64,000 nucleotides of DNA from Myxococcales bacterium. GTDB taxonomy: Bacteria; Desulfobacterota; Binatia; HRBIN30. Made by a program: the position numbers and the translations under genes. The notes below the pieces were generated by a model. That model ran no database searches. It saw nothing but the letters and a program-made list of their open reading frames with translations, and was not told the DNA's origin. Shown one piece after another: positions 4,912 to 63,999 of this stretch (positions within the stretch are counted from its first letter, which is position 1; each line of letters begins with the position of its first letter). The stretch spans positions 96,001 through 160,000 of the forward strand of contig JBBILD010000007.1 in the NCBI GenBank assembly GCA_037445065.1, read 5' to 3'.

Positions 4912-4957
4912 TTAAAAGCAAAAGCGGCGGCAGGCCAGGGTTAGCCGCCGCCGCTTT
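4912..4957 (-). terminator. Intrinsic terminator
   Basis: Minus strand AAAGCGGCGGC-loop-GCCGCCGCTTT followed by TGCTTTT. Confidence 0.65.
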
Positions 4958-7084: not shown

Positions 7085-7091
7085 CCACGCC

Positions 7092-14098: not shown

Positions 14099-14103
14099 CG
14101 CCC

Positions 14104-14131
14104 ATTTATACGGCCGCGGCAAGCATGTCAA
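14104..14131 (-). promoter_or_regulatory. Sigma70-type promoter of the riboswitch/btu locus
   Basis: TTGACA-N15-TATAAAT immediately 5' of the riboswitch. Confidence 0.65.
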
Positions 14132-22480: not shown

Positions 22481-23325
22481 CCGCCCTGGGAGCATCGCGT
22501 TCCAGCCAGCGTGTCTTCCCCAAAACCGCTGCAGCAGAGCGACGACAGCGAATGTGGCCCCCGCCGCGACTGGTGTGCGCTACCCCCCAAAAGCAGCTTG
22601 AAAAAATGTGGCAAATGCTACTGCGTCTCGATGACCCGAGCGGGAACCAGTAGGCGCCTGGTCGCGCGCACCAATCACGCCGGGAGGGAACCAAGAGCCG
22701 TAGGCACGCATTCCCCTTCCACCGCCGGCTCGCGCCAGAAGCCGCGCGCTGCAGTCACTCCACAAAGAACGGCGAAAGTATCCTCCAATACCGCCCATTC
22801 CAGGGGACTGCAGGAGCGACGTTCGTGGAGCCGCTGGTGCGATTTGTGGGCTCGTGGCCAAGTTGCACCAAGGGCAGGCGCAAAGGTTTGCCCCGGAGAG
22901 TTGTGGCGTGGGCCGCGGCTTCCCGCGGAGCACGAGCCCCGACCCAGGTGCGGTGCCCTGGGGAACTCGCTGCGCGCCGTCGTGAGCAGCTCTTAGCTCG
23001 GGTTCGCGTGCGAGGGTCTGGCGAGGTTTCGAGCCGTTGGCGCTCGCATGACCCTGCGCGCCCGACCGCTCGACTCTGCGGGCAGATGTAACCCGCTCTC
23101 AATGAACGCGCTCCTGCGAGAGGCGGGCCAGGCGCGCGTGTAGGCGCGGGCCGCACGACCCGTTGTCACGGATGCAACAAAATCGGAACGGGCCGCAGGA
23201 ATGGCCGTGGAGGAACGACAAGCTGAGGTCGTCGCGTCCCCGCATGGCGGGCGTTTTTGTTCTTCCTGGCATGAGGTTGAGCGGTTTGCTTGCGCCGTTT
23301 CTGGGGAGCAAGTAGGGTGCTCTAC

Positions 23326-41399: not shown

Positions 41400-41427
41400 G
41401 TTGCCTCCCGCAGGTGAGGGTTTGGGC

Positions 41428-42912: not shown

Positions 42913-43077
42913 GCCCCTGGTTCCTCCTGCAACCGCTTCTCCTAGCACGGGACCTCTACCGCACGGAAGGAGCACAGTAGGCAAACGGTGGAGAACACGA
43001 ATCCCCTCGGGGTGGCTGTGAAGCAGGTTGTTGGGGACGGGCCGCACCGACCTGTGGTAGGTGAGCGGGGAGGCGGA

Positions 43078-48386: not shown

Positions 48387-49421
48387 ATGCGGGTGAGCGA
48401 AGCACAGGGGGACGGAAAGAGCTGCCTTCCACCGGGTGGCCGCGCCAGGGCCCAAACAATTGCCGGCCGCTTCCTGCTGGTTTTGTTGGGCCTGACGAGT
48501 GGTGTTTTGCTGTTAGAGGCGTCCCTGCACCTCCTTGCTTGGCGACTGGGGCGAGACCCCACGCCCGTCCTTGCTGGTCAAGGAAAGACGGTGCTGGTTA
48601 CCGTTGGCGATTCGAACACGTACGGCTTGTACCTGAGGGAAGAAGAGGCCTACCCGGCGGTTCTCTCCCGACTTTGGCGAGACCATGGAGGACGACCGCC
48701 ATTGGCGGTGGTCAACTTGGGTTATCCGGGAATGAATTCCACATTGCTGGCATCGCAGTTTGGCCGGGTCTTGCAGGAGCTTCGCCCGCGGGTGGTTACC
48801 CTGATGCTCGGGGTCAACGATTTCTGGACGATCCCCATGCCCGCACGGGGAGAAGATGCGGCTGTTGAACGGCTGAGGCGTTGGTTTTGGCAGCATGTGC
48901 GCACGTACCGCCTGTTGTACTTTCTGTTTCGTTCGGCCGAGTTGCACCTGGCGCAGGTGCCACAAGATTTGCGAAGGGTGCGGCCTGGAGAGTTCTTCAC
49001 CCGCTGGTCATCTCGTGCGCGTGTGGGCGAGACGGAGTTGCAGTTGGGCTTCGAAGTGGACGCTGCGGCTGAGGCCCCGGCGTCCGTGCGGGAGACGACA
49101 TTGGCTGCAAACCTCGCTGCGATGGTCGAGGAGGCGCGCCGCAGCGGAGCCTGCGTGTTGTTGCTGACGTATGCGGCCGACGGTGGGCTGTATTGGCTCG
49201 CCAATCAGACCGTCCGTCGCCTGGCGGGCGAATTGGGCGTGGGGCTTGTGGATCTCGCTTCCACGTTCGCACCGCGTTGCCCGGTCCGTGTTGAGGGGAG
49301 CTTGGTTCAAGCAAAGTCGCATTGCCCTCAGTATTTGTTCCCGGACCAACACCCGACCGCGCTAGGGCATCGCGAAATCGCACTGCGGTTATTGGAGCCC
49401 GTTCGCTCGTGCTTGCGGTAG
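48387..49421 (+). CDS. Membrane-anchored SGNH/GDSL hydrolase
   Basis: TM helix; GDSNTYG, NLGYPG, GVND, DQHPT blocks. Confidence 0.85.
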   Translation: MRVSEAQGDGKSCLPPGGRARAQTIAGRFLLVLLGLTSGVLLLEASLHLLAWRLGRDPTPVLAGQGKTVLVTVGDSNTYGLYLREEEAYPAVLSRLWRDHGGRPPLAVVNLGYPGMNSTLLASQFGRVLQELRPRVVTLMLGVNDFWTIPMPARGEDAAVERLRRWFWQHVRTYRLLYFLFRSAELHLAQVPQDLRRVRPGEFFTRWSSRARVGETELQLGFEVDAAAEAPASVRETTLAANLAAMVEEARRSGACVLLLTYAADGGLYWLANQTVRRLAGELGVGLVDLASTFAPRCPVRVEGSLVQAKSHCPQYLFPDQHPTALGHREIALRLLEPVRSCLR

Positions 49422-49758
49422 GTCTGCGGCGTTCGCGGCGAGAGCCCGAGCGCGACTCGGCGGAGCTGTGGATGGCTCGGGATGTCCGCGGGTGCGCGAC
49501 GGCCCCCGGGCAACTGGAGAGCGCACGTCCTGCCGTGATCTCATTTGGCTGCTGTATGCACCGGCAGGGTGAAGCGGCCAGACAAGCCCCCGCTCGGGGT
49601 CCCGGTGCGGCGTACTCCCCGAGGCTCCTGTCGGAGTTCCTCAGCGGTCCGTTGTGAATGACTGCGAAGCGTCCCGGAGCGAGCGGACCCGTGACGGGGC
49701 GGGTTATACATCCGCCCTCCGTTCTTTCGGCGCGGAAAAAGGGCCGCTCCAGTGCCGG

Positions 49759-51264
49759 CTACGGGGCTGCTCCCGAGTGGCACTCCCAGCAGGGCCCCCG
49801 CCAATCATCGCCAACGTTGGCCGGGTGCTCGAACTCGAGTCCTTCCTCGCTGCTGGCGAAGCGTTTTTCGCCGGGCGGGCCTTGCGCCAGCACGACGTGG
49901 CATAAGTTGCAATCGCTGCGAATCATGCGGCCGTCCTCAGCTCGGTGGTTTCCAGCATGGCAGCGCATGCAGCCTGGCCAGAAGAGGTGGCTCGAGTGAT
50001 CCGGATACGCATCCCAGCGTATCTGCATTTCGGGGAAAAAGTTGCGCTCGAAAATCCGTTGTAACTCGCTCGCTGCCTGTTCGATGGCTTGCGCCTGGGC
50101 GCGAGCGATCTGCGGGTGATTCTCCTGGTAAAATCCACGCAGGCCATTGGCGATGGCGGGGATTGCTGCTTCGCGCGACGGGTAATCGCCGGTGAGGAGA
50201 TCAATTCCGATCTGTTTGAGCGAGGGCAGGCTTGCGTCCAGGTGCCCGGCCGCGAGCGCGGCGTTGACGGCGTCGCGGGGCGACAGAAAACGGTGTGCCG
50301 GGCGGTTGTGGCAGTCTACACAGTCCAGGCGCCGCCATTGGCTTCCGGCAGGCGGTGTTTCGCCGGCTCCCGCGGCGCGGTAGGTGACCGTCTTGCCAGT
50401 GCGTGCGTCCGTGGCTCGCACCCAGGGGATCGTCGTCCGCTCTGCATCGGCGGCAACGTACTCGACGACGTTTTCCAGCCGCATGTGCCAGTGAATGCCG
50501 CCCGCCTCTGGGCTACCTGGCTCCCCACCGCCGACATGAAGAGCCAGATCGAGATCCCAGCGGCTGTTGCGTTCGTCGGCAAGGAAATACACGTAGCGGC
50601 GCAAGCTAAAACCCAAGTGCTTGGCCGGCCAATGGCAAAGCTCGCAAGTATCTTGGGCGGGCCGTAAGTTGTGGACCGGCACCGGAATCGGGCGCGAATA
50701 CGTATCGGTGAGGAAGGCGTAGAGCTGGCGGGTGCCGTTGAGTTTGGCGCGCAGGTACCAATCGAAGCCCTCCCCCACGTGGCAGTCCACGCAAGCCACG
50801 CGCGCGTGTGGCGAGTGCTGGTAGGCAGCATACTCGGGTCCCATGACTTTGTGGCAGACCGCGCCGCAGAAGGTGTTCGATTCGGTGGCCTCGTAAGCTT
50901 GGAAACTTCCGAAGGCAGAAACAAAGAGAAAACCGAGTAGACCTGCGAGAGCGAGTGCGGTCCGGCGGCGGGTGGCAGCCTGATTCAAGTCGAGCACCGG
51001 CCACGCAAACTCCCAGCCTCGTCCCGTCTTTCGCCAGCGCCGCCAACTCCACCACCAACCGGTCGCGGCCAGTAGCAGGCCACCGATCATCACGAGGGGA
51101 AGGAAAAGGAAGACCACGAGATCTGCGTACGGAGGCGGTGCTTGTGGGGAGACGGTTTCGAGCAGCAACAAAAAGGCAATCGTACCGAGCGCCACGGCCG
51201 CTAACCCGAGGCCAGCGACGGTCAGGGGATTTTTCCAGAGTGTCTTCCGTGGGCTTGGGTTCAT
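49759..51264 (-). CDS. NapC/NirT-family inner-membrane multiheme cytochrome, ImcH-like (7 heme motifs)
   Basis: Three N-terminal TM helices; CGAVCH (CX3CH), CVDCH, CELCH, CVDCH, CMRCH, CNLCH, CWECH; SPHARVACVDCH. Confidence 0.85.
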   Translation of the reverse strand: MNPSPRKTLWKNPLTVAGLGLAAVALGTIAFLLLLETVSPQAPPPYADLVVFLFLPLVMIGGLLLAATGWWWSWRRWRKTGRGWEFAWPVLDLNQAATRRRTALALAGLLGFLFVSAFGSFQAYEATESNTFCGAVCHKVMGPEYAAYQHSPHARVACVDCHVGEGFDWYLRAKLNGTRQLYAFLTDTYSRPIPVPVHNLRPAQDTCELCHWPAKHLGFSLRRYVYFLADERNSRWDLDLALHVGGGEPGSPEAGGIHWHMRLENVVEYVAADAERTTIPWVRATDARTGKTVTYRAAGAGETPPAGSQWRRLDCVDCHNRPAHRFLSPRDAVNAALAAGHLDASLPSLKQIGIDLLTGDYPSREAAIPAIANGLRGFYQENHPQIARAQAQAIEQAASELQRIFERNFFPEMQIRWDAYPDHSSHLFWPGCMRCHAGNHRAEDGRMIRSDCNLCHVVLAQGPPGEKRFASSEEGLEFEHPANVGDDWRGPCWECHSGAAP

Positions 51265-53021
51265 GGGCGCACCGAAAAACCGAGCCGATGAGGGTGGCAG
51301 GTAAAGCACGGGAAGGCAAAGTGCGGCTCACCGCGGCCGTCGTTGCGGAAAAAGCGGGTGGCGCTGTGGCATACCTCGCACAACCCGGAACCTGGGCCGC
51401 TCACACTTGCAAAACTACCGTCCGCAAGGCCGCGTACGTTCTCGAAACGAAGCGGCACGAGTTCGCCGTTTGGCGCGCGCACGAAGCGAGCGAGGAGGAA
51501 CGCGTTGTCGCTCCCGTGGGGGTCATGGCACACCGCGCATTCGGAGGGCGAGCCGGCCCGTGGGTCCTGATGGGTGCGCCGCTCGCTCCCGTGACAGGTC
51601 GCGCAGCCCGTAATCGAGGCGTGGCCGGGACCGTAAGGCGTACCCTCTGCAGCCGCGTGGCAAAGGTCGCATTCGATCTCCAAATTGCCGTGGCCAAATT
51701 CTACCGCGTGCTCCGTGGTGGCGCGGTGACAAAAGGCGCAGGCGCCGAACGGACGCAGCAGAGCATCACCGTGGTTTACGCCGACGAAACTCGGCACGCC
51801 TCCTGCGTCGGGCAGGGAGCGATGCTGCGGGCCAAAGGGTCCAAGTTCCTGTTCGTGGCACAAGAGACAGCCCAGTTCGGCCGCACCGCTGTTGCGCATG
51901 GCCTCGGCCTTGTCGCTGTGGCAAAAAGCACAGGAACCAAAGACCCCTTGCTTGCCCAGTTCGTGCGCGGGGCCGAGAAAAGCGGGCACCAAGCTCGCGG
52001 GCGGGAAGGTGCGGTGGCCCCGGCCGTAGTAGCCCGGGCTAGTGGCCGCATGGCAGACCTCGCAAGTGAGCGAAGCGTGTACTGGGGAGACTGCGGACGC
52101 AATCGAACGATGGCAGAGAGCGCATTCACCAAAGGCAGCTCCTTCACGTGGTGCGTGAGGGTCCGGCTGCCGATCGGGCACCAAATCGGCTGCCGGCAAG
52201 AGGCGGTGCGCGGGGCCAAAGTCCGATGTGGACCCGAGCGGATGGCAGGTGGCACAGGACAACGCGCCTGCCGGACCGAGGAGGGCCTCGAGCGAGCGCG
52301 CCGCTCGGTTGTGGCACAATGCGCAGTCGCCCCAGCTCGCCTCTGCCTGCGGCCGGTGTGGTTCGAGAGCGGGGTCAGGAACTCGCTGCGCCCCCGGCCG
52401 GCTGGCGTGCCCGCGCCCGTACGGCATTCCGGGCACTTCGCGGTGGCAGGTGGTGCAGGCCGTCGCCGCAGTGCCGCCGAACGGCTGTGCCAGGGAAGTG
52501 GCTTGCTCCGCGTGGCACAGGGCGCATTTGCCCCAAAAGGACAGGTCCTGTAAATCGTGCGGGTCGGGTGGCGGATTGGGAACCAGGCTCGGGGCCGGCA
52601 GGCTTTGGTGGTGCGGACCGTACTCAGGAGAGAGGCGCTCGCGATGGCAGTCCGTGCATCGCAGCCCCAGGTCGCCCGTGTTCAAGCTGTTTGCCTTCTC
52701 CGCATGGCAGTACGCACAGCTCCCCATCGCCCTGAGGGCGCCTAGCTCATGACCGCTTGCGGGGAAGGCGGGGACCAAGCTGGCAGCGGGCAGGGCTCGA
52801 TGGCCGCGTCCCACAAACCCGGGCAGCCGTTGCGCATGGCAGGTGGTGCATCGGAGGTCGGCAGCGAAGGGCAACACCTGCTGGGCTTGCGTTTGGTGGC
52901 AAAAAGCGCACTCGCCGAATGCGCTCGCTTCTGCCGGCGGGCTCCCCTGGTACACGGTGCTCCCTGAGTCGCCGCATGCCGCCAGCGTACTGGCGAGCAG
53001 GAGCAAGACCGCGCGCCTCAC
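51261..53021 (-). CDS. 18-heme c-type cytochrome lipoprotein built of tandem di-heme repeats
   Basis: 18 CxxCH counted; LAAC lipobox; GTG overlaps the upstream TGA and follows an AAGGAGG RBS. Confidence 0.85.
   Translation of the reverse strand: MRRAVLLLLASTLAACGDSGSTVYQGSPPAEASAFGECAFCHQTQAQQVLPFAADLRCTTCHAQRLPGFVGRGHRALPAASLVPAFPASGHELGALRAMGSCAYCHAEKANSLNTGDLGLRCTDCHRERLSPEYGPHHQSLPAPSLVPNPPPDPHDLQDLSFWGKCALCHAEQATSLAQPFGGTAATACTTCHREVPGMPYGRGHASRPGAQRVPDPALEPHRPQAEASWGDCALCHNRAARSLEALLGPAGALSCATCHPLGSTSDFGPAHRLLPAADLVPDRQPDPHAPREGAAFGECALCHRSIASAVSPVHASLTCEVCHAATSPGYYGRGHRTFPPASLVPAFLGPAHELGKQGVFGSCAFCHSDKAEAMRNSGAAELGCLLCHEQELGPFGPQHRSLPDAGGVPSFVGVNHGDALLRPFGACAFCHRATTEHAVEFGHGNLEIECDLCHAAAEGTPYGPGHASITGCATCHGSERRTHQDPRAGSPSECAVCHDPHGSDNAFLLARFVRAPNGELVPLRFENVRGLADGSFASVSGPGSGLCEVCHSATRFFRNDGRGEPHFAFPCFTCHPHRLGFSVRP
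51620..52920 (-). repeat. Seven ~65-aa intragenic di-heme repeats
   Basis: Consensus (F/W/M)GxCA(F/Y/L)CH-x15-18-CxxCH-x7-8-G(P/R)xH-x3-P-x4-VP-x6-H; last unit truncated. Confidence 0.8.
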
Positions 53022-53608
53022 TTTGGCGCCCTCCTTTGTACCTGGCGGTGACAGGCTACGCACAGCTCATCCTCAGCGAGGGGAAGGCGCAGGAAGGCTG
53101 TGTTTTGCGGGGCGAAAGAAAACTCCGCGCTGCTGCCCTCTCGAGTCAAATCCTGGCAGCGCGCAAGGGTGGCGCGGCGGATCGCCAACGCGACAGAGTG
53201 ACTCGGCAGTGGGCGCACTGGCGCGAGGATTTCTTCGGCGATGCGGGGATCGTGAAAGAGGTGGCAAGTGCCGCAGTACATGCGGCCGTCTTCGGCAAGG
53301 GGAAGGTTTTGCTGCGCCTCTTCTGGCTCCACTCTTGGCGGCAACAGAGCGGCGACCCGTTCTGGACTGAGCTCCAGGTGTTCTGCAGACCCGCTGTGCA
53401 GCGTGCGGTCGTGGCAGCTCAAGCAGGTCTCTTCTTTCGAGGTTAGAAGATCCATGTCTTCGTTGTGGCAGAGGGCGCACTTTTCCTCGTCTGGCTCGCC
53501 ATCGGCGCGCAGCATCCAGTGCGGATTGTCCTCGTCCTCCGCACGCATCTCTGCGGCCCACAGTCCCGGAACGAGCAAAAGCAGCAAAACCACGGCACGC
53601 AGATGCAT
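53018..53608 (-). CDS. Periplasmic tetraheme cytochrome c
   Basis: Signal peptide; CALCH, CLSCH, CGTCH, CVACH; LPL...CxTCH..H...FLR...LCxxCH pattern. Confidence 0.82.
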   Translation of the reverse strand: MHLRAVVLLLLLVPGLWAAEMRAEDEDNPHWMLRADGEPDEEKCALCHNEDMDLLTSKEETCLSCHDRTLHSGSAEHLELSPERVAALLPPRVEPEEAQQNLPLAEDGRMYCGTCHLFHDPRIAEEILAPVRPLPSHSVALAIRRATLARCQDLTREGSSAEFSFAPQNTAFLRLPLAEDELCVACHRQVQRRAPK

Positions 53609-53931
53609 CACGGCCCCACTCCGTTGCTGCCGTGGCAAGCGGCACAACTTGCCTCTCCTTGGTTGCGCACCAGCGCCCGGATTTCGGTGAGGTCGAGGTC
53701 GGGAATCCCGGTGCGATTGACGAGATGGAGGTTGCGTTGCGGGTGGCAAAAAAAGCAGTCCTGGCGCCCCCACCCGCTCGGATGTTCCTCTTGCACGAGT
53801 TCCAGCCCTGCAGGAGAGGCGAGCAGGTTCCCGTAATCCTCACCTTTCGGACCGGCGCTCTCCCCGCAGGCGAACAGCCAAAGAGAGAGGCACAGAACGC
53901 CACCAAGGTACCAGAACCGCCGTGCTACCAC
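53608..53931 (-). CDS. Small diheme cytochrome c lipoprotein
   Basis: LFAC lipobox; HPSGWGRQDCFFCH, CAACH. Confidence 0.75.
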   Translation of the reverse strand: MVARRFWYLGGVLCLSLWLFACGESAGPKGEDYGNLLASPAGLELVQEEHPSGWGRQDCFFCHPQRNLHLVNRTGIPDLDLTEIRALVRNQGEASCAACHGSNGVGP

Positions 53932-54572
53932 GCTCCCTCCACTCCAGCCTGCTCGTGGCAAGCAATGCAGTAGTCCGCCCGGTGGCAGGAGCCACACTCG
54001 GCCGGGTTCGCGCGCGCTTCCACGGAATGGAAGAAGCGGAAGCTGCGCTCGTGCACCTGCGTGTCGATCGTGTCGCGTCGCGCGTGGCAATTCACGCACT
54101 CTTGCTGGCGGTGGCAATCTTCGCAGCTGGCACTGTCCGTACGGGCAATCATGGCGTGGGCGCGCACCCAGCCAGCGTGGTGGTCTTCGGGCAGCAACGG
54201 CCACAGATTCCGATGGCAAACGAGGCAGCGGCTGGGGGCGTTTGCTACCCGCTCTATCCCGGGCAAGTGGCAAGTGTGGCAGGCTTCGGCGCCTGGGCGC
54301 AGGGCAAGGGTGGATAGCGATCGCGCGAGGTCGCTGTCCTCGCTTTCGATGCGCAGGGAGAACTGGTGGCAGTCAACGCAGGCTACACCTTGCTCCGCAA
54401 AGGTCTTGCGGTGGCCGGCGTGGTCGAAGCTGCGCCTCGCTTCCGCCGTGCTCGGGTTACGCAGCGGGGAGTGGCGAGGCTGGAGCCAGGCGTTCGCCGG
54501 GAGCACCTCGCGGCAGGCAGCGAGCACCGTACAAAGCACCATGGCCGTCCCGATCCTCGCGACGTGTTTCAC
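53925..54572 (-). CDS. Heptaheme cytochrome c lipoprotein (c3/c7-like N-terminus)
   Basis: LAAC lipobox; FDHAGH; CVDCH, CHTCH, CLVCH, CEDCH, CVNCH, CGSCH, CIACH. Confidence 0.82.
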   Translation of the reverse strand: MKHVARIGTAMVLCTVLAACREVLPANAWLQPRHSPLRNPSTAEARRSFDHAGHRKTFAEQGVACVDCHQFSLRIESEDSDLARSLSTLALRPGAEACHTCHLPGIERVANAPSRCLVCHRNLWPLLPEDHHAGWVRAHAMIARTDSASCEDCHRQQECVNCHARRDTIDTQVHERSFRFFHSVEARANPAECGSCHRADYCIACHEQAGVEGAW

Positions 54573-55999
54573 CCAGCCCAACCTCCCCGCAACCGCTCCA
54601 TTTCCGGAAACACTCCACCCCATCCCTCTTCGGGCAGATACCGCCAGCGGTAGGCCAAATACAAACCGACACGGAATTCGTGATCGAAGCGGGGATTGTG
54701 ATTTGCCTCTAGGTGAAATTCGGCGAGCAGGTTTGGGCGCAGCAGGTAGCCGATGCCGAGACGTCCACTGGTCGCTGTGTCGCTGCGGTTGGTCACCTTG
54801 TCGAAGGTGGCGGCTTCCAACTTGGTGCGAAACACGAACCGCTCGTACACCCGGTTCTCGTGATACACTCGCCAGTGATGCCCCCGCCCGCCGGGGCCAT
54901 CGATCAGGCTGTATTCTGCCCGCACTCGTTCGAGCCCGTCTCCCCCGGGCAGCCAGAGGAGCCCGACGCTCGCCAGGTAACCGGTCTCCGTCGCGCCGGG
55001 GCGTGGTTCGTATTGCTGGAGCCCAGCGTCGGCATACGCGGACCAATGGCGGCCGTGATAGTACTGGAGCCCGCCGCGCACCTGCCGCAAGCTACTTGCT
55101 GAGAAGAGAGAGAAGATCGGGTCTGCGTAGCGCTCGAGCTGCGAGAGTCGCAGCGCCGGTGCAGAACGCTGCTCGGGCTTGTAGTAAGCGGCTTCCATCC
55201 TGGCGAACAGACGCGGATGGAGCAAAAACGAGGCGCCAGCGTTGAGGCGCTCGACATTGCGCTCGGCGGTGTCGTAGGAGGCTAGCCAATACAGGTCGGG
55301 ACGAATGCGCAGGCCCACAAACTGGTGGCGGAAACGAAGCTGGGAGAGCTGGCGGATGCGGTGCGCTTCGCGTTCGAGCTGCACGAAGCTGAACCCCACG
55401 ATTCCGCTCCGTCCAATGCGGTAGTGCGTGCTGGCACCGAAAAACTGCTCGTCGCGCGACAGCGAGCCCAGGCGTGGTTGTGGTTCGAAGTACCGAGGCT
55501 GTCCTCCGAAGACCGAAACTGCCCAGCCCACTCCGCGGTCGAAGGTGAGACGTCCAGCATCTGCCACCCAAAACCCGACACCTGCCGTCTCGATTGCCTG
55601 GCGGCCCAAGGAGAACTGCAGGCCGCGCAGGCCCAACTCGGCCCGACCGAGATAGAAGTCCGCATCCGTGTTGGCGCGGCTCCAGTCTCGCTCGGCCCGG
55701 AAGTACGTTTCGCCGCCTGTGTCATGATGGATTCGATCTGCAGCGAGCGCTCCGTAAAGGTTGGTCGGGCTCTCGGCGCGGGTGCCGATGTCCACATCGC
55801 GGACCTGGCCGAGCAGCTCGGCGCTACCCTCCCACTGGGCTGCGTACGCGCCTGTTCTCCCGCTAACAAGCGACCATAGGGCAAGCGGCAGGGCGGCGAT
55901 GCCAATGACAGAGCGAATCCGGTGGCGGGCGGTAGAGAAGTGCGGGCCGCGCCAGCCTGGTGACAAGCGCAGCCCGCGCCACTTAGAACTGCCGCGCAT
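54569..55999 (-). CDS. Putative outer-membrane beta-barrel (porin of a porin-cytochrome conduit); start uncertain
   Basis: Signal peptide ending AYA; alternating amphipathic strands (FSLGRQ, RLGIGYLL, FRVGLYLAYRW); no heme motifs; embedded among cytochrome genes. Confidence 0.7.
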   Translation of the reverse strand: MRGSSKWRGLRLSPGWRGPHFSTARHRIRSVIGIAALPLALWSLVSGRTGAYAAQWEGSAELLGQVRDVDIGTRAESPTNLYGALAADRIHHDTGGETYFRAERDWSRANTDADFYLGRAELGLRGLQFSLGRQAIETAGVGFWVADAGRLTFDRGVGWAVSVFGGQPRYFEPQPRLGSLSRDEQFFGASTHYRIGRSGIVGFSFVQLEREAHRIRQLSQLRFRHQFVGLRIRPDLYWLASYDTAERNVERLNAGASFLLHPRLFARMEAAYYKPEQRSAPALRLSQLERYADPIFSLFSASSLRQVRGGLQYYHGRHWSAYADAGLQQYEPRPGATETGYLASVGLLWLPGGDGLERVRAEYSLIDGPGGRGHHWRVYHENRVYERFVFRTKLEAATFDKVTNRSDTATSGRLGIGYLLRPNLLAEFHLEANHNPRFDHEFRVGLYLAYRWRYLPEEGWGGVFPEMERLRGGWAG

Positions 56000-58427
56000 G
56001 AACAGCCGATACCGGGAATGAGCGGCCCTCGGCGTGGCAAACCAGGCAAGCCTCCACACCGGTTGTGGTGGTCTGTGTATCGGCATGCGCTTGCGACGCG
56101 GTGGCGTCGTGGCACGAGGTGCAGGCTGCGGTGATGGGACCAATGCGCCCGCCTTCCACCTCGTTGCCCGTGGTGGGATCGAGATGGGCGCGCCGCGTCC
56201 CGAGCGCGGTGCCGGGGAAAGGCGGCAGGGTGTAGGTGCCGGGCAAGTGGCAAGTGCGGCAGTTGCGCCGATCGCCCGGGAACAAGACTTCCGAGAAATC
56301 GAAGCGAGTGAAGTTCTGTGGCGGCGGGCCGAAGCCATACACGACGTACGGCTTTTGGTGGAGTTCTTCGCCGGTGTGGATTTTGTGGATGAGCACCTTG
56401 AAGTCGATGGTGGCGGTTTCTTCGCTAGCGGCCACGGCCGCGGGGTCGCGGCGGCGCCGTGCGGCGTCCGACTGGTTCGGGTTGTGGCAAACGACACAGG
56501 CCTCCAGCGTATTGCGCAGGTTGCCGTGCACGCTGAAGTCCACGGAGAATTGTCCGTGGCATGAGGCACATTGCTCGTCGCCCACGACCTCTCGCCGTGC
56601 TACCGGGGCTGAGCCATCCACAGTAAACGTCACGAGCGTATTCGGGGCTGCTTCCTGGACCACCTTGGGTTGAATCGGATCCACCGCGCTCAAGGTGACT
56701 TGCCGCCGGGCTTCGCTCACCACCGCCCATGTGCCGGTGGCCGAGGCGGGAATCGAGAACGGCACGGAGTAGCGGAACGTCCCGGACGCATCCGGACCTT
56801 CCACGGTCCCACTCGCGCCGCCGCCTGCGGCAGTGGCCACGAGCATCTCGGTGTAGTCGGTGGTGGGGCCACTGAACGTGAAGGCCAGCCGATTGAGAGA
56901 GGCGAGGCTTTGTAAGGGCGTCCCGGCCTGGTCGGTGACGCGGAAGGAAACAATGGGCGACTCGCCAGCGTTGTGGTTTTCGAGGCCGGTGATTTCGACA
57001 CGGAGGCCGTTCAACTGACGAGAACGCCCCGGCACTACGTGGGCCCCGGCAACCGACACGTCGAACTCTCTACCCGAGTCCGGTTCGTGGCAAAAGCCGC
57101 AATCGCCGTCTTCGAAGCCGCGCGCCTGGAAATGGTTGTGACCCGGTGGGCCCGCATCGCTGGCGCTGGAAGAGGGATTGACGTCATCGTGGCAGGCAAC
57201 ACAGGCTGCCGTGCTGGGGCGAGTGCGGTGGTAGTCCGCGGTGGGACCTTCGGCATGACAGACGGCGCAGTTCTCGATGGCTCGCGGAAAGCCCACGCCG
57301 GTGATCCGGCCGTCTTGTTCCTTGCGCGCAAACACGATGTCTTGACGCAGGAAACTGCTGTAAATCGCGTAGCTCGAACCAGGAGCACCGTTAACGATCG
57401 AAGGCAGTTCCTTTCCCCGGTGGATTTTGTGCACCATCACTCCGAGGTCCACGCTGCGGCCGCGCTCGTCAGTTGCCTCTTGGGTGTGGCAAACGGTACA
57501 GAGACGGAGTTCGCGGCGGTTACCGTGAGCCACCAGGGGATCATGGCACGCGTTGCATTGCGACGTGGTAGACCCGGCTCGGATCACCGGTGGAGAGCCG
57601 TCAGGAACGAAGTCGAACACCGGGTTTGCGGCCCGTTGTACGCCGTCGAGGAGGCGGTCCACCTGCATGCCGACGCTGTAAGTGGCGCCGCTGTTCACAG
57701 GAGCGAAGGTCTTGCGGAAGGTGTACTGGTAAAGCCCGCGAGCAGCGTCAATGGTGGCAAGCGAGCCGCCGGAGTCGTAAGCCGGGCGCGTGCGGTTGAT
57801 CTCGTTCACGTAGCGGGTGAAACGCTGGTGAAACTCGCCGCCACCATCGTATTCTTCGACCCGCGCGAGCGTGAAGCGTACCCGCGCGAGAGACGGATCC
57901 TGGGTCGCAGACAGCACCGGGGTGAGCGGAGCTCCCTGGTCGTCTGTGAGGGTGAACAGCACGCGAAGACTGCCGGCTTCGTCGAAATTCGCAGCGACCA
58001 CGGCGGCCTTGACCCCGGATCCAACCGGCGTCGGCATTGGTGGCAAGGTTGGCGAGGGAAGCGTTGGCGTCGCAGTGGCGGTGGGTGGCGGTGCGGTCGG
58101 GGTTTCCGTCGCAGTCAGAGTCGGCTCTGTTTCCGGGGTGGTCGGCAACGGGGTTGCCGGGCAGCCCGTGAGGGCCTGATTCACGAGCACAATGAGTTCG
58201 TCAACCGTGATGTTTCCGTCGCCGTTGAGATCGGTGCTGGGGCAGCACGTGCTGGGGGGCAGCTCCTGAAGCGACACGTTCACGGCGCACAGGACTTCGT
58301 CTACCGTCACCGAGCCGTCCTCGTTGCAGTCCCCGGGGCATTGTGCCCGCGCGCTGGCACCCGCGATCAGCGCGGCAAACGCCAGCAGTCCAGTGAGCAT
58401 AGAGCAGCGAAGCAAATAGTTTCTCAT
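55983..58427 (-). CDS. OmcA/MtrC-family decaheme cytochrome with N-terminal dockerin-like domain
   Basis: 10 CxxCH in two blocks of five, each after a beta-sandwich domain; HKIHRG and HKIHTG motifs; CPGDCNEDGSVTVDEV + PT linker. Confidence 0.88.
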   Translation of the reverse strand: MRNYLLRCSMLTGLLAFAALIAGASARAQCPGDCNEDGSVTVDEVLCAVNVSLQELPPSTCCPSTDLNGDGNITVDELIVLVNQALTGCPATPLPTTPETEPTLTATETPTAPPPTATATPTLPSPTLPPMPTPVGSGVKAAVVAANFDEAGSLRVLFTLTDDQGAPLTPVLSATQDPSLARVRFTLARVEEYDGGGEFHQRFTRYVNEINRTRPAYDSGGSLATIDAARGLYQYTFRKTFAPVNSGATYSVGMQVDRLLDGVQRAANPVFDFVPDGSPPVIRAGSTTSQCNACHDPLVAHGNRRELRLCTVCHTQEATDERGRSVDLGVMVHKIHRGKELPSIVNGAPGSSYAIYSSFLRQDIVFARKEQDGRITGVGFPRAIENCAVCHAEGPTADYHRTRPSTAACVACHDDVNPSSSASDAGPPGHNHFQARGFEDGDCGFCHEPDSGREFDVSVAGAHVVPGRSRQLNGLRVEITGLENHNAGESPIVSFRVTDQAGTPLQSLASLNRLAFTFSGPTTDYTEMLVATAAGGGASGTVEGPDASGTFRYSVPFSIPASATGTWAVVSEARRQVTLSAVDPIQPKVVQEAAPNTLVTFTVDGSAPVARREVVGDEQCASCHGQFSVDFSVHGNLRNTLEACVVCHNPNQSDAARRRRDPAAVAASEETATIDFKVLIHKIHTGEELHQKPYVVYGFGPPPQNFTRFDFSEVLFPGDRRNCRTCHLPGTYTLPPFPGTALGTRRAHLDPTTGNEVEGGRIGPITAACTSCHDATASQAHADTQTTTTGVEACLVCHAEGRSFPVSAVHARQF

Positions 58428-58621
58428 CTCCGACCCCCTTCGTTTGGCATCGCTTCATCGCAGGGCGCGCCTTTTGTTCCCTTGCCCACGACCCGAGTAT
58501 CCTCCGGTGTGTGACTCATGCCTTGAGCTTCCACAACCAGGAAAACTTGTGAAGCGGTGTACTGTATTTCTTCTCTTTCGATGTTCAGAACACCTTGGAA
58601 TTCTGGTAAGCAGCGCGTGTG

Positions 58622-60811
58622 ATGAGGAGCGGGGCTTGGGTCGTTGCGCTAGCCTCGGTGGCCTTGCTCTGGGCGGTACCGAGCCACGCCTTGCGTTGCG
58701 CAGGGGACTGCGACGGGGATGGTGCGGTGACAGTCGAGGAGCTGGTCACGGCTGTGGCGATTGCCCTGGGCGAGCAGTCCGGAAGCAGGTGCCTGGCGGT
58801 GGACGGCAATGGCGACGAGCAGGTGACCGTGGACGAGATCGTGCGCGCGGTGCGCGTTGCGCTCGAGGGATGCCCGCAACCGATTGTGTACTACGACCGA
58901 GACGACCCGCGCCGCACGAACCCCTTCCCGGATGACTTTTGGCTGGTCGAGGACGCAGCGCAGCGCACCGGCGTACGACTGAATGTGGCAGCGCCGCCGG
59001 CACCGTCGGATGTAAGCGGCATCTTGCGCCTCCTCTTGCGGGAGACCAACCGCTTGGACGGCTTCAGCCCGATCGCTCACTTCGTGCTGGAGCTGAGCGA
59101 AGCCCCTGATCCGCGCAGCTTGCCCCTCACACCGGCGGAGTCGCTCGAGCGGGGGGCGAGCGTGGGTCTGTTCGACCTCACACCGGGGAGCACGAACTTT
59201 GGCTCGCGAGTGCCCGTGCGCGTGCTGGTGCGCGACGATACGAGCGTGCTCGGAGTGCGCACCCATAGCTTGTTGATTTTTCCATCCATCTCGCTCACTC
59301 CGCGCGGCCGTTACGGACTAGTCGTCTCGACGCGTTTGCGCACGCTGGGGGGCGAGCGGTTTGGCCCCTCCCCGTTTTTCCGGCGTGCGCTGAGCGCTCC
59401 GGTCAGCGGGGAAAGTGCAGCGGTGCAAAAAGTTCGGGCGTTGAGTAGCGAGGTGCTGTCGGCGGTGGGGGACTTCGAGCCGGAGGTACGCGACGATGCG
59501 ATTCTCGCTGTGCGCATTTCGGTGCGCAGCGTGGACGATTTGCCGCGCGACCTGCTCGCCATCAAGGAGCAGGTGCTGGCGGCGCCGCCTCCATCCTTCG
59601 AGGTCCAGAGTGTTCAGGCAGAAACCAATCCTTTGAGCCCGGTGGCAGCGGTGGTGCGAGGAGTATGGAACGCCCCCGATTGGCGGGACGGCTTGTACTT
59701 GAGCCGCGACAGCAACGGCACGCCGCGGGTCACAAAGACCAATCGCGTGCCGTTCGTGCTGGCGCTGCCGCGAACCAGTTTGTTCTCCCCCGTCCCAGTC
59801 ACGATGTACCAGCATGGCAACCCAGGAAGTGCGGAACGCGAGGTTCCGGGTGAGGCGCGGGAGTATCTGGCGGAAGCTGGGTTCGCGGTGGCCGGGTTTA
59901 CCGACAACTTGAACCGCGAAGTCAGCGCCGGCATTTCCAACTCGGAAGAAGCGATTGCGCGCCAAGTGACTGCGGTATTTTTCGCCTTGGTGCAGGATCG
60001 CCGCATCCCGGACTACTGGACCGAGCTGAATGGCGAGCAAATCGCCTTCGTGCGGCTGTTGCAGAGCATGGGCTCCCTCGACGTCCTGCCCGTAGGAGAG
60101 CCCGACGGAGTGCCCGAATTGGATACCGGGGCGCCACTCACGTATGTCGGGATCAGCCAAGGTGCCAATTATGCGCCCGGCCTGCTGCCATACGCGCCCG
60201 AGATCAAGGCGGCGGCACTGGTGGTCGGCGGAGCGCGGTTGATGGAGACCTTGATTCACCAGCGCCCCGACGACTTCGTTCGCTTGCTGGGACAAGTGTT
60301 TCCAAACATGACTGCCGCCGACATTTGGATGGGCCTGTCGCTCTTCCAGCACAATTTCGACCGCCAGGACCAGCACAACCACGCCCGCTTCCTGTACCGC
60401 GAGCCGCTCGCCATCAACGGGATCACCCCTAAGGCGAGTATTCTTCTCATCGAGGGTCTGGAGGATTCCCTCGTACCGAACCACGCAACCGACGCGCTGG
60501 CTTGGCTGATGGGACCGTTACCGCACTTGCGACCGATTGCGCGTCCTGTTCCGTTTCTCGCCGCTGCGGACCCACCCATTCGCGGTAACGTAGACGAGGC
60601 GACTACGGCCGCGTTTTTCCAGTACGTACCGGCAGGGGTCCCTGGGCTGCCGCCCACACCTGGTTGCGCGGTGCTTGCCCCGACAGTGGGCTCCGAAGGC
60701 CACTATTGTGCACAAGCGGCACCCGAGTCGCGGCGGCAGCGCTCGATTTTCTTGCGCTCTGCGCTGCTGCCGGGAGCGCCGGAGATCGTGGATCCGTTCG
60801 CACTTCCTTGA
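58622..60811 (+). CDS. Secreted dockerin-like + alpha/beta-hydrolase (lipase-like) protein
   Basis: Signal peptide; CAGDCDGDGAVTVEELV; PFPDDF...LDGFSP; YQHG; GISQG nucleophile elbow; DSLVPN; EGH. Confidence 0.72.
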   Translation: MRSGAWVVALASVALLWAVPSHALRCAGDCDGDGAVTVEELVTAVAIALGEQSGSRCLAVDGNGDEQVTVDEIVRAVRVALEGCPQPIVYYDRDDPRRTNPFPDDFWLVEDAAQRTGVRLNVAAPPAPSDVSGILRLLLRETNRLDGFSPIAHFVLELSEAPDPRSLPLTPAESLERGASVGLFDLTPGSTNFGSRVPVRVLVRDDTSVLGVRTHSLLIFPSISLTPRGRYGLVVSTRLRTLGGERFGPSPFFRRALSAPVSGESAAVQKVRALSSEVLSAVGDFEPEVRDDAILAVRISVRSVDDLPRDLLAIKEQVLAAPPPSFEVQSVQAETNPLSPVAAVVRGVWNAPDWRDGLYLSRDSNGTPRVTKTNRVPFVLALPRTSLFSPVPVTMYQHGNPGSAEREVPGEAREYLAEAGFAVAGFTDNLNREVSAGISNSEEAIARQVTAVFFALVQDRRIPDYWTELNGEQIAFVRLLQSMGSLDVLPVGEPDGVPELDTGAPLTYVGISQGANYAPGLLPYAPEIKAAALVVGGARLMETLIHQRPDDFVRLLGQVFPNMTAADIWMGLSLFQHNFDRQDQHNHARFLYREPLAINGITPKASILLIEGLEDSLVPNHATDALAWLMGPLPHLRPIARPVPFLAAADPPIRGNVDEATTAAFFQYVPAGVPGLPPTPGCAVLAPTVGSEGHYCAQAAPESRRQRSIFLRSALLPGAPEIVDPFALP

Positions 60812-60930: not shown

Positions 60931-63900
60931 TCAAGTGAAATGCAGGTTGCGGTAGGTCCGGAACAACTGGGTTGTTGCTTGCCGGGAGGCCCCCACGAAG
61001 GTCACCTCGCCTCCGACGGCTTGGTGAATGACGAAACGGAAGGGGGCTCCTAGGGGACCTCGGAAGAGGTGCGTTCCGGGAAACATGTGGCCGAGCGCGT
61101 GCTGGTCTTGCAAGAAGTGCGAAGCAGCTCCGAGAGCCTGCAGTTTGTTGTCACCTGTCACGATGCCATCGAGCGCAGCTCGGTAATTCTCCGCGGCCGC
61201 CCCACTAAAGTGCCCCTGGTTGTTGAGTGCGGCCCACCATTGGCGGTACCACGGTTCACCGAAAGCATCCTGGGCGAGATTGTTGCGGACCAGGATTTCT
61301 GCCTCGAAACCGTTGTAGCCCGCATCCAAGGCCGCCTCGCGGGTGATGTCGGCGTGCGTCGCGGTGTCGCTGGCCGGGATGATGCCTTCCCGTGCGGGTT
61401 CGAAGCCGCCTGGGTTCAGGATCTTCTGGTCGAAGTAGGCGGATGAGAAAATCCCGGCAGCCGCGGCGCCCAGTTTGACCAGGTCACCGGGCAGACCGGC
61501 TCCATTGCCGATCTCTTGGGTGGCGTGCGAGGCGACTGTACTGAAAGCCGAGCGCACAGCCACTACACGCAGAGTGTTCACCGCTTGTGCAACGCTGATG
61601 CCCTGTGCGGCGGAACCAGCAAGCGAAGAGATCACCATGTTGGCCGTCGCCGCCACTACTCCTAGGCCTACGCCGACAGCTCCCGCGATCGCGCCGCTAA
61701 TGGCAGCCTTTCCGATTTGGCTCAACGGCAACCCTTGAGCCGCAGCGGCCATGGCACTGATCGCAGCCGAGAGAACCGCGGCGACCAGTACCGCTATGAG
61801 GATTTCTATGAACTCGCCATTGGCGTCCGTCAAATTGGTCGGATTCCACGCCGCGTAGGAGTACGGGTTGAAGAACTGGCGCGCTGGATCGTGGCTTTGG
61901 AACATGGCGATGTCCGAGTCGTAAAAGCGCGCGCCGGCGTAGAGTAAGCCGCTCAATGGCTCGCGCTGGTACCCGGTAAAGTCGCGGCACGCTCGTACGT
62001 CGCCGCAGGCGAGGCCGGAGAGTCGCCGGCCATCGGCGCTAAAGTATCCGATGAGCCCGCCAAAGGGGGCGAAGCGGATGTGGGCCATCACAGCGCCACT
62101 GTCGCTGGTAATCATTTCTGTCGAACCGACGTGGTTCAGGTGGTAGTAGGCGAACTCGCTAGGTAGCCCCTGCGCGGCAGTTGGCCGAACCAGCAAGGGC
62201 CACGGGAAGGTCGCAAAAAAGAAGACCATTGCGACCAGCGCGATGCGCCCGCGCCCGACCTTGCCCAGGAAGGAAAGGCGGGTGCGGCTGGGAGCGATCC
62301 ACAGGCATGCGATGAGCGTGAGGCCGAGCAAAGCGAACACGGGTGCGGCATCGGGGCGGACGACGACTTGCAGAAAGGGAATGCCCTCGGCCGTGCGGGA
62401 GGCGAGCAGGCGGATTGCGGCGCGCCCGGGCGCACTGGCAAAGGCCGGGTTGGTGGCTTTTTGCGAGGCGAGCAGGATCTTGCCGGCAAAGTAATATTTG
62501 GTCAGGTAGCCGTTTTCCGCCTCGGCCAGGCCGAAGTAATTCCGAGTCCACGGACCACCACCATTACGCATGCCGATGCGATTGCCGGCTTGGTCATAGG
62601 CAAATTCGACCGCACCGCCGTCCACGCGAACCAGTCGATTTTCGGCGTCGTACTCGTAAGTACGGTTTGCGTTGCGGATTCGGTTCCCGTTCGCGTCGTA
62701 TTGCACCAGGTGTTCCAGCCCGTCCACAGCTACGACTTGGTGCGGGCGCTGCCGCGTGTAGAAGAGGGTGCTTCCCTCTTTTTGAACCAGGTTCCCGAGC
62801 GGATCGTAGGCGTACTCCAGATCCGCGTTCGCTCCTGGTAGGTGCACGGCGCGCAAGCGGCCAAGCCCGTCGTAGGTGAACGCCGCGCTGCGATCGAGGT
62901 CGGGTACCGCCGGCGCGTTCGGCTCGCTGAGCGTGGCTAGGAAGCCGTTGGCGTTGTAGCTCGAGTAGTTGAGTTTCTGCAGGATTTGTCCCGCGCGCTC
63001 ACTCCGGCTCGAGGACAAGCGGAAGTTGTTGGAGACGTCCGCGTACTCGCGCACGTCACGCACACCGTTGCCGAGGAGCAATTCGCGCGGCCGTGCGAAC
63101 ATGTCGTAACCGATGCGGCGGGCGTACACCCGCTGTCCGATGACCGCATACACTTGGCCAGCCGGGTCGTAGCGGTAGCGGACCCGCTCGCCGTCGGGGT
63201 AGGTTACGGAGGCAATGTTGCCGGCTGCGTCGTACGCCCAGAGGAGTGTGCCCCTTGTGTCAGGCTCCCCGGGCAGGCTGAGGGTCACCTGGTTGGCGAC
63301 CGGGCGCCCGTGCACGTCGTAAAAAGTGAGGTTCGTTCCGGTGGCTTCGTACACGGCGGTAAGCCGCGAGACGGCGCCGCGCGGATCCAGATTCGGGAAA
63401 TCGGAGGACACCCAGACGTGGCGGTCGTACTGGTATCGCACGTCCGGCCGCGGGTCGTCGCAGCGGTGCACGTACGAATCGCCGCTCGAGTAATACTTGG
63501 CGATGAGTCGCCCCAGAGCGTCGTAACAGAGGCTGATGTGGCGGCCACTGGCCGGATCGTTCACGTAGACCAAATTGCCGTTGGCATCGTACCCGTATTG
63601 CCACACTCCGGAGTTCGGATCTTCGCGCTGGACCAAGAGCCCGCGGGAGTCGTACGTGAAACGGCTAGCGGTGGCGGCGTCCCACACGCCTGGGGCGGTC
63701 CCTTGGAGGGTTTCCAACACACGACCGAACGCGTCGAAGCGGCTCGCGGTGGCCTGCAGGAAGCGGTCCCCGCTGCGCGTCGTCTTCTCTACGACACGAC
63801 CGAAACCGTCTCGCTTCTCCAGTGTGCGTGCCCCTTCACAAGTACCGGCATTCGTGCAGGGGTCGATGGTTTCGACGGACCACGCTGCCGGGTACTCGAA

Positions 63901-63999
63901 GCGGGTCACGGCGCCGTCGGGAGCGATGCGTTCGGTGGGGCGATCGAGTAAATCGTAGGAAACCAACGTAGCGCCGTACGCAAGCGGAGGGGTGACGTA
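60931..63999 (-). CDS. RHS/YD-repeat protein with C-terminal putative toxin domain (5' partial)
   Basis: Many YD..GR repeats; core YYHLNHVGS, FTGYQRE, YAGARFYD, NPYSY...PTNLTDANG; frame open to window end. Confidence 0.9.
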   Translation of the reverse strand, partial: YVTPPLAYGATLVSYDLLDRPTERIAPDGAVTRFEYPAAWSVETIDPCTNAGTCEGARTLEKRDGFGRVVEKTTRSGDRFLQATASRFDAFGRVLETLQGTAPGVWDAATASRFTYDSRGLLVQREDPNSGVWQYGYDANGNLVYVNDPASGRHISLCYDALGRLIAKYYSSGDSYVHRCDDPRPDVRYQYDRHVWVSSDFPNLDPRGAVSRLTAVYEATGTNLTFYDVHGRPVANQVTLSLPGEPDTRGTLLWAYDAAGNIASVTYPDGERVRYRYDPAGQVYAVIGQRVYARRIGYDMFARPRELLLGNGVRDVREYADVSNNFRLSSSRSERAGQILQKLNYSSYNANGFLATLSEPNAPAVPDLDRSAAFTYDGLGRLRAVHLPGANADLEYAYDPLGNLVQKEGSTLFYTRQRPHQVVAVDGLEHLVQYDANGNRIRNANRTYEYDAENRLVRVDGGAVEFAYDQAGNRIGMRNGGGPWTRNYFGLAEAENGYLTKYYFAGKILLASQKATNPAFASAPGRAAIRLLASRTAEGIPFLQVVVRPDAAPVFALLGLTLIACLWIAPSRTRLSFLGKVGRGRIALVAMVFFFATFPWPLLVRPTAAQGLPSEFAYYHLNHVGSTEMITSDSGAVMAHIRFAPFGGLIGYFSADGRRLSGLACGDVRACRDFTGYQREPLSGLLYAGARFYDSDIAMFQSHDPARQFFNPYSYAAWNPTNLTDANGEFIEILIAVLVAAVLSAAISAMAAAAQGLPLSQIGKAAISGAIAGAVGVGLGVVAATANMVISSLAGSAAQGISVAQAVNTLRVVAVRSAFSTVASHATQEIGNGAGLPGDLVKLGAAAAGIFSSAYFDQKILNPGGFEPAREGIIPASDTATHADITREAALDAGYNGFEAEILVRNNLAQDAFGEPWYRQWWAALNNQGHFSGAAAENYRAALDGIVTGDNKLQALGAASHFLQDQHALGHMFPGTHLFRGPLGAPFRFVIHQAVGGEVTFVGASRQATTQLFRTYRNLHFT

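Follow-up and report, generated by a model that had tools for sequence, protein, structure and literature searches.

A conserved Candidatus Binatia gene cluster that probably encodes a porin-cytochrome conduit combines an OmcA/MtrC-family decaheme, an ImcH-like cytochrome and a predicted barrel of an unnamed family

The 64-kb stretch of DNA analysed here (hereafter the window) belongs to contig JBBILD010000007.1 of a Binatia genome (GCA_037445065.1, deposited as a Myxococcales bacterium). Seven minus-strand genes, named G1 to G7 in order of transcription and spanning positions 49759-58427, form a single operon that probably encodes a porin-cytochrome conduit taking electrons from the quinol pool to the cell exterior. 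Judged from its sequence, the cluster is real, conserved and well-formed, and constitutes a variant of the porin-cytochrome theme that is new to the literature searched: by homology, it is built from members of the OmcA/MtrC and ImcH families, an unnamed family of barrels and four unclassified cytochromes. An initial annotation, made from the letters alone, had already proposed a wire from the quinone pool to the cell surface, and our data support this proposal on the three points where it was most exposed, namely the fold of the G2 product, a possible soluble reductase partner and a possible match with an already described conduit, all of which are taken up below. As was also claimed, the cluster would be complete as a conduit.

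The gene order and the heme content of the operon could be established directly. The stop and start regions of successive genes overlap at all six junctions, by 17, 4, 7, 1, 4 and 4 nt from G1 to G7, as had been annotated, and the seven genes are considered a single operon because each junction overlaps by 1-17 nt. A promoter scan of positions 49000-59000 found no sigma-70-like site, and the 13 terminator-like sites of this interval are uninformative when compared to the 7.8 +/- 3.6 obtained in shuffled sequences. The G+C content is about 64% throughout the window. We counted 47 CXXCH motifs and one CXXXCH motif in the operon, which is the announced total of 48, and the distribution over the six cytochrome genes (10, 7, 2, 4, 18 and 7 motifs for G1, G3, G4, G5, G6 and G7, respectively) agrees with the annotation gene by gene. 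These motifs are not due to chance because 2000 composition-preserving shuffles of each protein yielded means of only 0.008-0.145 motifs and never more than three. Moreover, when all stop-to-stop frames of the window were inspected, the six cytochrome genes were the only ones to contain two CXXCH motifs or more. Signal peptides and lipoboxes were assigned by eye in all that follows.

G1 (55983-58427; 814 aa, ten CXXCH motifs) is, by all homology searches, a true OmcA/MtrC-family decaheme cytochrome, as the MtrC/OmcA-like label given to it had suggested. It scores 379.3 bits against the NCBIfam model TIGR03507 (cut-off 209.3), covering positions 4-672 of the 672 in the profile, and matches the Pfam family PF22113 (MtrC/MtrF domain II/IV) twice (E 7e-51); its sole matches among the PDB sequences are MtrF (E 4.8e-22), UndA and MtrC, and close homologues are publicly annotated with the OmcA/MtrC name. 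The public record of G1 itself starts at Met10 and is 805 aa long. The protein consists of a signal peptide, a dockerin-like/EF-hand calcium-binding module (residues ~30-85), a Pro/Thr linker (~90-135) and a four-domain body of the MtrC type, in which two pentaheme domains (II, with CXXCH motifs at residues 291, 310, 387, 409 and 443, and IV, with motifs at 620, 644, 723, 769 and 794) alternate with two non-heme domains. The N-terminal module falls just under the Pfam thresholds, with 19.5 bits against 22.9 for Dockerin_1 and 25.0 bits against 25.4 for EF-hand_1. The MtrC and OmcA proteins of Shewanella carry an N-terminal lipoprotein anchor, whereas the window G1 has no lipobox, its N-terminus reading ...ASARA-QC and continuing into the dockerin-like module. 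A second difference concerns the disulfide found in domain III of the Shewanella proteins: G1 cannot have it because, apart from those of the heme motifs, its cysteines (seven in number) are all located within residues 1-89. The characterised members of the OmcA/MtrC family are extracellular, cell-surface terminal reductases.

The second gene, G2 (54569-55999; 476 aa), encodes no heme motif. Its signal peptide appears to be cleaved after AYA at residue 53, leaving a mature protein of about 423 aa, in keeping with the annotated beta-barrel of some 420 aa. An AlphaFold2 model computed from 42 homologues (mean pLDDT 81.3, pTM 0.73) has 22 strands in the stretch from residue 55 to residue 454, and the matches listed when this model was compared to the PDB with Foldseek are all outer-membrane barrels (OccK/OprD, AlgE, FimD and chitoporin, with TM-scores of 0.25-0.48); MtrB is not among these listed matches. 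The barrel nature of the 54569-55999 product, on which the annotated conduit depended, is thus predicted by the model. G2 has no match in Pfam or NCBIfam, and only two of the 42 family members show weak Porin_4 matches. The family is small: an exhaustive search with its profile, covering 1.84 billion cluster representatives, recovered 176 proteins at E <= 1e-3, of which 27 reach E <= 1e-30. In the ESM Atlas, G2 retrieved its own Binatota clusters and, as a weak lead, BBP2_2 porins at 0.92.

In some distant members of the G2 family, barrel and hemes belong to the same polypeptide, an arrangement also known from Cyc2, a fused porin-cytochrome. Among the best 149 of the 176 representatives, three are fusions with multiheme domains N-terminal to the barrel: P0341 (575 aa) and P0384 (423 aa) with four CXXCH motifs each, and P0344 (723 aa) with 12 motifs arranged in six diheme repeats of 45 residues. 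The relationship of P0344 to the G2 family was supported by hhalign (probability 99.0, E 3.7e-18, 351 columns). A further distant relative, P0350, carries three heme motifs at its C-terminus. As read from their sequences, these fusions are independent evidence that such barrels work with heme chains, and G2, given its modelled fold, is presumed to be the sheath of the conduit.

The conservation of the cluster was surveyed with the profile of the G2 family in a set of genomes where each species was represented once, which gave 30 loci that were examined with flanks of up to 10 kb. According to their record titles, 19 of these loci belong to Candidatus Binatia, three to a delta-proteobacterium, one to Thermodesulfobacteriota, one to Alphaproteobacteria and six to an unspecified 'bacterium'. 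In 25 of the 30 loci, the genes G2, G3, G4, G5 and G6 follow one another in this order on the same strand, the remaining five being affected by contig ends (L010, L012, L022 and L024) or by a weak G5 match (L028). The G3 gene follows the barrel gene in 29 loci. G1 is found directly upstream of G2 in 23 loci, so that the barrel gene sits between G1 and G3, elsewhere in the locus in three, and not at all in four, two of which begin within 800 nt upstream of G2. The heme numbers of three of the proteins are essentially fixed in the stop-to-stop frames, with ten motifs in 24 of 26 G1 frames, seven in 28 of 29 G3 frames and two in all 28 G4 frames. Because an imcH gene lies within 10 kb in only nine of the 30 loci, the conserved unit is considered to be G1-G6; proximity to imcH characterises the clade of the window and a few others. 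Other neighbours (cytochrome b, maturation genes or a reductase) were also sought, and no family was present in more than seven of the 30 loci. A soluble reductase that the cytochromes might serve as periplasmic partners, the second point on which the annotated wire was exposed, is therefore found neither in the operon nor as a conserved neighbour of the cluster. In the three loci where G1 is displaced (L016, L020 and L021), the OmcA/MtrC gene is located downstream of G6, on the same strand in L016 and on the opposite strand in L020 and L021, and G1 is therefore the movable module of the cluster. One cluster, L030:7691-12226, looks damaged, with five motifs in the G1 frame, a G2 that aligns only from residue 339 and six motifs in G3; frameshifts, masked bases or a decaying copy could be responsible.

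G3, G4 and G6 had been described as lipoproteins and indeed carry lipoboxes (LAAC, LFAC and LAAC, respectively) that are kept in the orthologues. G3 (53925-54572; 215 aa, seven CXXCH motifs) is the favoured candidate for a cytochrome in or at the barrel because its gene follows that of the barrel, its seven hemes are constant and the residues after its lipid cysteine are conserved; analogy with known conduits points in the same direction. The heme cysteines and histidines of all seven motifs are invariant in the 29 aligned orthologues, and so are Cys20, Arg21 and Pro25 of the tether, which reads 'C-R-x-x-[LM]-P' from the lipid cysteine onwards. G3 falls in no specific family: it has only generic c7/c3 matches in Pfam and none in NCBIfam, the best PDB match of its profile is a nitrite reductase (E 3.4e-4, two heme motifs covered), and the ESM Atlas returned its own Binatota clusters together with a weak lead, a c7-like cluster from Deferribacterota at 0.96. 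G4 (53608-53931; 107 aa, two CXXCH motifs) is a small diheme lipoprotein, and a ...GC/AC lipobox followed by 'SE[DN]YGNL' is found in all its orthologues. G5 (53018-53608; 196 aa, four CXXCH motifs) has an ordinary signal peptide, and no lipobox was seen among the listed N-termini of its orthologues; it is presumably soluble and periplasmic. The orthologous frames contain four motifs in 26 of 28 cases, one of the others being cut by a contig end and one being partial, and the only match of G5 among PDB sequences is a weak one (E 0.011).

G6 (51261-53021; 586 aa, 18 CXXCH motifs) is the largest of these four cytochromes and the only one whose heme number varies widely. Six diheme repeats of 64-67 aa, mutually 33-56% identical, are followed by a seventh unit that is shortened and, at the C-terminus (residues ~420-586), by a conserved tetraheme module; the spacings between motifs alternate between 20-23 and 43-44 residues. 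It has no match among PDB sequences at E <= 0.1. The number of motifs in the 27 G6 genes counted ranges from 4 to 20 and is always even: four in six loci, six in 14, eight in one, 12 in two, 16 in one, 18 in one and 20 in two. Most orthologues align only over their last ~160 aa. From these alignments and counts, the heme number of G6 is seen to vary by gain or loss of diheme repeats of about 64 residues ahead of the conserved tetraheme module.

The last gene, G7 (49759-51264; 501 aa, six CXXCH motifs and one CXXXCH motif), had been annotated as a NapC/NirT-type membrane cytochrome. This homology holds, with 40.1 bits against PF03264 (cut-off 24.1) over residues 104-191, but the assignment can be refined, as G7 is specifically ImcH-like. 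ImcH (GSU3259) is described as having three putative transmembrane helices, seven heme motifs, the first of which is CXXXCH, and a NapC/NirT-like region (Levar et al., PMC4251993), and the ImcH proteins as having 495-519 residues, three transmembrane motifs, a CX3CH beside the membrane domain and six CX2CH (Zhong and Shi, PMC6295460). G7 shares all of these features: its length lies in the published range, a Kyte-Doolittle scan delimits three hydropathy segments (13-40, 42-71 and 101-123) that we read as three transmembrane helices, the CXXXCH motif (CGAVCH, residues 133-138) is located ten residues past the third of them and the CXXCH motifs are found at 158, 207, 315, 432, 452 and 492. E128, H138, K174, Q180 and Y189 of G7 sit at a uniform +1 offset from E127, H137, K173, Q179 and Y188, the conserved residues of heme 1 and the quinol site in a study of purified ImcH (bioRxiv 10.1101/2023.05.03.539133), which is a match of positions only. 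Homologues of about 500 aa number more than 3617 and occur in many phyla, in agreement with the reported spread of ImcH.

ImcH is described as oxidising menaquinol and as being required when the extracellular acceptor has a high potential (PMC4251993; bioRxiv 10.1101/2023.05.03.539133), and G7 is, on the strength of this likeness, the presumed quinol oxidase that opens the wire. We also considered whether G7 might be a generic protein of the NapC/NrfH type that serves a nitrite or nitrate reductase and rejected this assignment: G7 stays below the equivalog cut-offs (59.5 bits, E 3.5e-16, against the NrfH model TIGR03153, for a cut-off of 134.2), and no such reductase was found in the part of the window that was scanned. 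NrfH is the sole match of G7 among PDB sequences (E 0.0079). The genomic setting of G7 differs from that described for its relatives: it lies in an operon with a putative outer-membrane conduit, whereas the imcH gene of G. sulfurreducens is monocistronic (PMC4251993), and imcH is reported beside cytochrome genes but never beside mtrAB or mtoAB (PMC6295460).

The operon would share the logic of the Mtr pathway, i.e. a NapC/NirT-related quinol oxidase, periplasmic multiheme cytochromes, a heme chain sheathed by a barrel and a decaheme cytochrome at the surface. An ImcH-type protein, G7, takes the place of the CymA of Shewanella. As the initial annotation had stated, MtrA and MtrB are not recognisable in this operon: against the MtrA/DmsE model TIGR03508, the best of the seven proteins reaches 30.8 bits for a cut-off of 192.2, G2 matches no Pfam or NCBIfam family, and neither an MtrA chain, with the G3 profile, nor an MtrB chain, with the G2 profile, is retrieved from the PDB sequences at E <= 1. 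The barrels also differ in size, with 28 predicted trans-membrane motifs in MtrB (PMC4245776) against 22 predicted strands in the 476-aa G2. In this respect G2 is closer to the porins of the Geobacter porin-cytochrome (Pcc) systems, which are described with 18-22 strands and cluster with multiheme cytochromes, including lipoproteins, as G2 does; the heme numbers of the G2 partners also fall in the ranges published for the Pcc cytochromes, 5-14 and 1-15 (PMC4245776). This likeness of G2 and G3 to a Pcc porin and its cytochrome is one of strand number, clustering and heme counts with the published descriptions only. Geobacter also uses ImcH as its inner-membrane entry (PMC4251993), as G7 would be here. 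In contrast, the outer cytochrome G1 is of the OmcA/MtrC type, which is not listed among the outer cytochromes of the Pcc clusters in the text at hand (PMC4245776), and the operon contains four further cytochromes compared to the Geobacter Pcc clusters, including the 18-heme repeat protein. The hybrid Shewanella/Geobacter architecture claimed at the outset is therefore a fair description, with G1 of the Shewanella type and the strand count of G2 and the nature of G7 of the Geobacter type.

The fused relatives of G2 invite a separate comparison. P0341, P0344 and P0384 would be single-chain porin-cytochromes, like Cyc2 and like GM18_3465 of Geobacter sp. M18 (PMC4245776); however, their hemes are N-terminal to the barrel whereas those of GM18_3465 are located in loops (PMC4245776), and G2 itself is without heme motif. 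With regard to G1, OmcA/MtrC-family genes have been reported outside Proteobacteria, where they may sit apart from mtrAB (Desulfobacterota, ISME J 2025, PMC12133095). The Desulfobacterota genomes of that study are nevertheless described as still encoding MtrA and MtrB, while the Binatia clusters have a different barrel and different inner cytochromes.

The novelty of the cluster was assessed from the literature. To our knowledge, the phylum of Binatia has not been known for this physiology, and the searchable literature contained neither a link between Binatota/Binatia and extracellular electron transfer nor a description of this cluster, the search bearing on article texts, the supplements of which might list such genes. 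Binatia go unmentioned in the texts of PMC12133095 and of the survey of Mtr systems by Baker et al. (PMC8805035), both of which treat MtrC homologues together with MtrAB. On the third point raised above, then, no equivalent among described conduits was found in the literature searched.

A path for the electrons may be suggested by these results. G7 would oxidise (mena)quinol at the inner membrane; the periplasm would be crossed via the soluble G5 and the lipid-anchored G4 (two hemes) and G6 (18 hemes), the latter acting as a repeat wire of variable length; the outer membrane would be crossed via a heme chain, most likely that of G3, sheathed by G2; and, at the surface, G1 would reduce acceptors that are insoluble or of high potential, for example humics, electrodes, a partner cell or the oxides of Fe(III) and Mn(IV). 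In this scheme we infer, largely by analogy with characterised conduits, the location of the cytochromes, the member that threads the barrel, the order and direction of transfer, the acceptor and the contacts between proteins.

The same hardware could also work inward, in the manner of the MtoAB/PioAB-type systems: Fe(II), Mn(II) or reduced humics outside the cell, a cathode or a syntrophic partner would then be the donors, and the quinone pool or periplasmic oxidases would receive the electrons. Multiheme conduits are reversible in principle, Binatia genomes are described as largely aerobic and 21 of the 30 loci have no imcH within 10 kb, which leaves room for other inner-membrane partners; homologues of CymA and of CbcL/MtoC, in addition, are reported in both reducers and oxidisers (PMC6295460). 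The initial annotation had held that direction cannot be read from sequence, which is strictly true, but an ImcH and an MtrC-type outer cytochrome do lean outward. Outward flow is favoured because ImcH homologues are reported only from Fe(III)-reducing bacteria, where they are read as quinol oxidases only (PMC6295460), and because clusters for Fe(II) oxidation often, indeed typically, lack an mtrC-type gene (PMC4245776), whereas G1 is present in 26 of our 30 loci. The hemes of ImcH, at -350 to -150 mV (bioRxiv 10.1101/2023.05.03.539133), would also be a poor fit for Fe(II) at neutral pH. Inward operation of the conduit is for these reasons unlikely in our view.

Several points nevertheless weigh against an outward conduit as we propose it. 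Descriptions of Binatia mainly present aerobic methylotrophs and degraders of alkanes, and the ecological role of such a system in these organisms is hard to place. The organisms concerned are known as metagenome-assembled genomes only; function, localisation and electron path are read from sequence, and the contact between G2 and a cytochrome is a putative one. The fold matches of G2 are to generic porins with low TM-scores, and the model thus argues for a barrel rather than for a conduit. Mtr-type conduits are described as running either way, with partners of the CymA and CbcL types (PMC6295460). A tie to the quinol pool is no fixed part of the unit, imcH being within 10 kb in nine of the 30 loci only; its position and orientation there vary. 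Lastly, the AlphaFold2 model of G3, computed from 29 sequences, is too poor to use (pLDDT 51.1, pTM 0.26), and the lipoprotein nature of G3 contrasts with the description of MtrA and of the 'periplasmic' cytochromes of the Pcc systems as soluble.

A second alternative, in which nothing conducts across the outer membrane, the cytochromes forming a periplasmic store or relay for soluble acceptors or for detoxification and G2 being an ordinary diffusion porin, would accommodate the resemblance of the G2 model to substrate porins and exporters (OccK/OprD, AlgE) as well as a periplasmic orientation of G3, G4 and G6, all of which could face that way, the contact of G2 with a cytochrome being a putative one, but is very improbable in view of the following: (i), G1 belongs to the OmcA/MtrC family, whose characterised members are extracellular, (ii), it bears a secreted-protein module that is also found on other exoprotein-like open reading frames (ORFs) of the window, (iii), the barrel gene is fixed between G1 and G3 in 23 of the 30 loci, (iv), distant relatives of the barrel are covalently joined to multiheme domains and, (v), no reductase is conserved nearby.

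Returning to the conduit, two of its components, the anchor of G1 and the length of G6, vary between loci in a way that may be coordinated. G1 lacks a lipobox and carries the dockerin-like module in the window and in L001, L002, L003, L005, L015 and L027; the module follows the pattern 'CxGDC[ND]xDG..VTVDE ... DxNGDG..VTVDE', i.e. paired repeats resembling calcium-binding loops. In most of the other G1 orthologues, a lipobox precedes a Pro/Thr linker; L004, a cluster of the lipobox type, has a four-heme G6. The clusters with a dockerin-type G1 are exactly those seven of the 23 complete clusters in which G6 has 12-20 hemes, the other 16 having 4-8. In a tree built from G2 and G3, each of the two traits has changed at least four times, and the G1 anchor and the G6 length always change together; however, only two independent pairs lie on well-supported branches, a number with which a sign test cannot reach significance. 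The association is thus suggestive, not proven. It is tempting to read these data jointly, G6 being an adjustable wire with which the G1 anchor co-evolves, a long extracellular G6 with dockerin-plugged G1 forming a cellulosome-like assembly, and the G2 family representing a third lineage of conducting porins, although we regard this combined proposal as speculative and rather doubtful. Were it true, G1 would be docked on G6 or on a surface partner in a modular heme assembly reaching beyond the cell, and the G2 family and its fused multiheme relatives would be independent of the MtrB and Pcc porins.

The dockerin-like module is not restricted to G1 and occurs four times in the window, in the form 'CxGDC[DN]xD..V.VDE' ... 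'D..GDG.VTVDE', at 58340 (-), 58697 (+), 20175 (-) and 22215 (-). It is N-terminal in G1 and in a divergently encoded protein of 730 aa (ORF 58619-60811, +), internal, after a Pro/Thr linker, in an M28 peptidase of 808 aa (ORF 19024-21450, -), and C-terminal in an ORF of 228 aa (21928-22614, -). From this distribution, the module probably serves as a tag that is typical of exported proteins in this lineage. The 730-aa protein is secreted, belongs to no Pfam family and contains a GISQG motif, which is GxSxG-like; it may be a hydrolase and is kept at the same position in L001-L003 with 69-73% identity.

The surroundings of the operon contain several other recognisable features. At the far end of the window, an RHS/YD-repeat protein of more than 1011 aa (60931-63999, -) runs off the end of the sequence, and a homologue with 47% identity is found at the same relative position in L002. 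A cobalamin riboswitch (RF00174, Rfam, 85.3 bits) is located at 13935-14106 (-), and the run of minus-strand genes downstream of it probably forms an operon for B12 uptake, with an ABC ATPase (4037-4921), a FecCD permease (6032-7375) and a TonB-dependent receptor (9253-11331) among its products. At 39660-43284 (-), an AMP-binding acyl-activating enzyme adjoins a wax-ester synthase/diacylglycerol acyltransferase (DGAT; WS_DGAT_cat, E 1.5e-72), a pair that suggests storage-lipid synthesis.

Candidatus Binatia are uncultured and occur widely in soils and sediments. A conserved conduit in these organisms would extend to a large lineage the possible capacity to reduce iron and manganese minerals, humics or partner cells, or to exchange electrons with them. 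The G2 family has no Pfam or NCBIfam model, and standard annotation pipelines based on the detection of mtrB or pcc would miss such a conduit and report an orphan 'mtrC' in its place. The variation in G6 from 4 to 20 hemes, together with the swap between lipid anchor and dockerin-like module in G1, would offer a natural series in which to study how wire length and tethering bear on electron transfer. More generally, the cluster suggests that a surface reductase of the MtrC type can be combined with a barrel and with inner cytochromes that are unrelated to MtrAB, which would extend the argument for the modularity of the Mtr systems.

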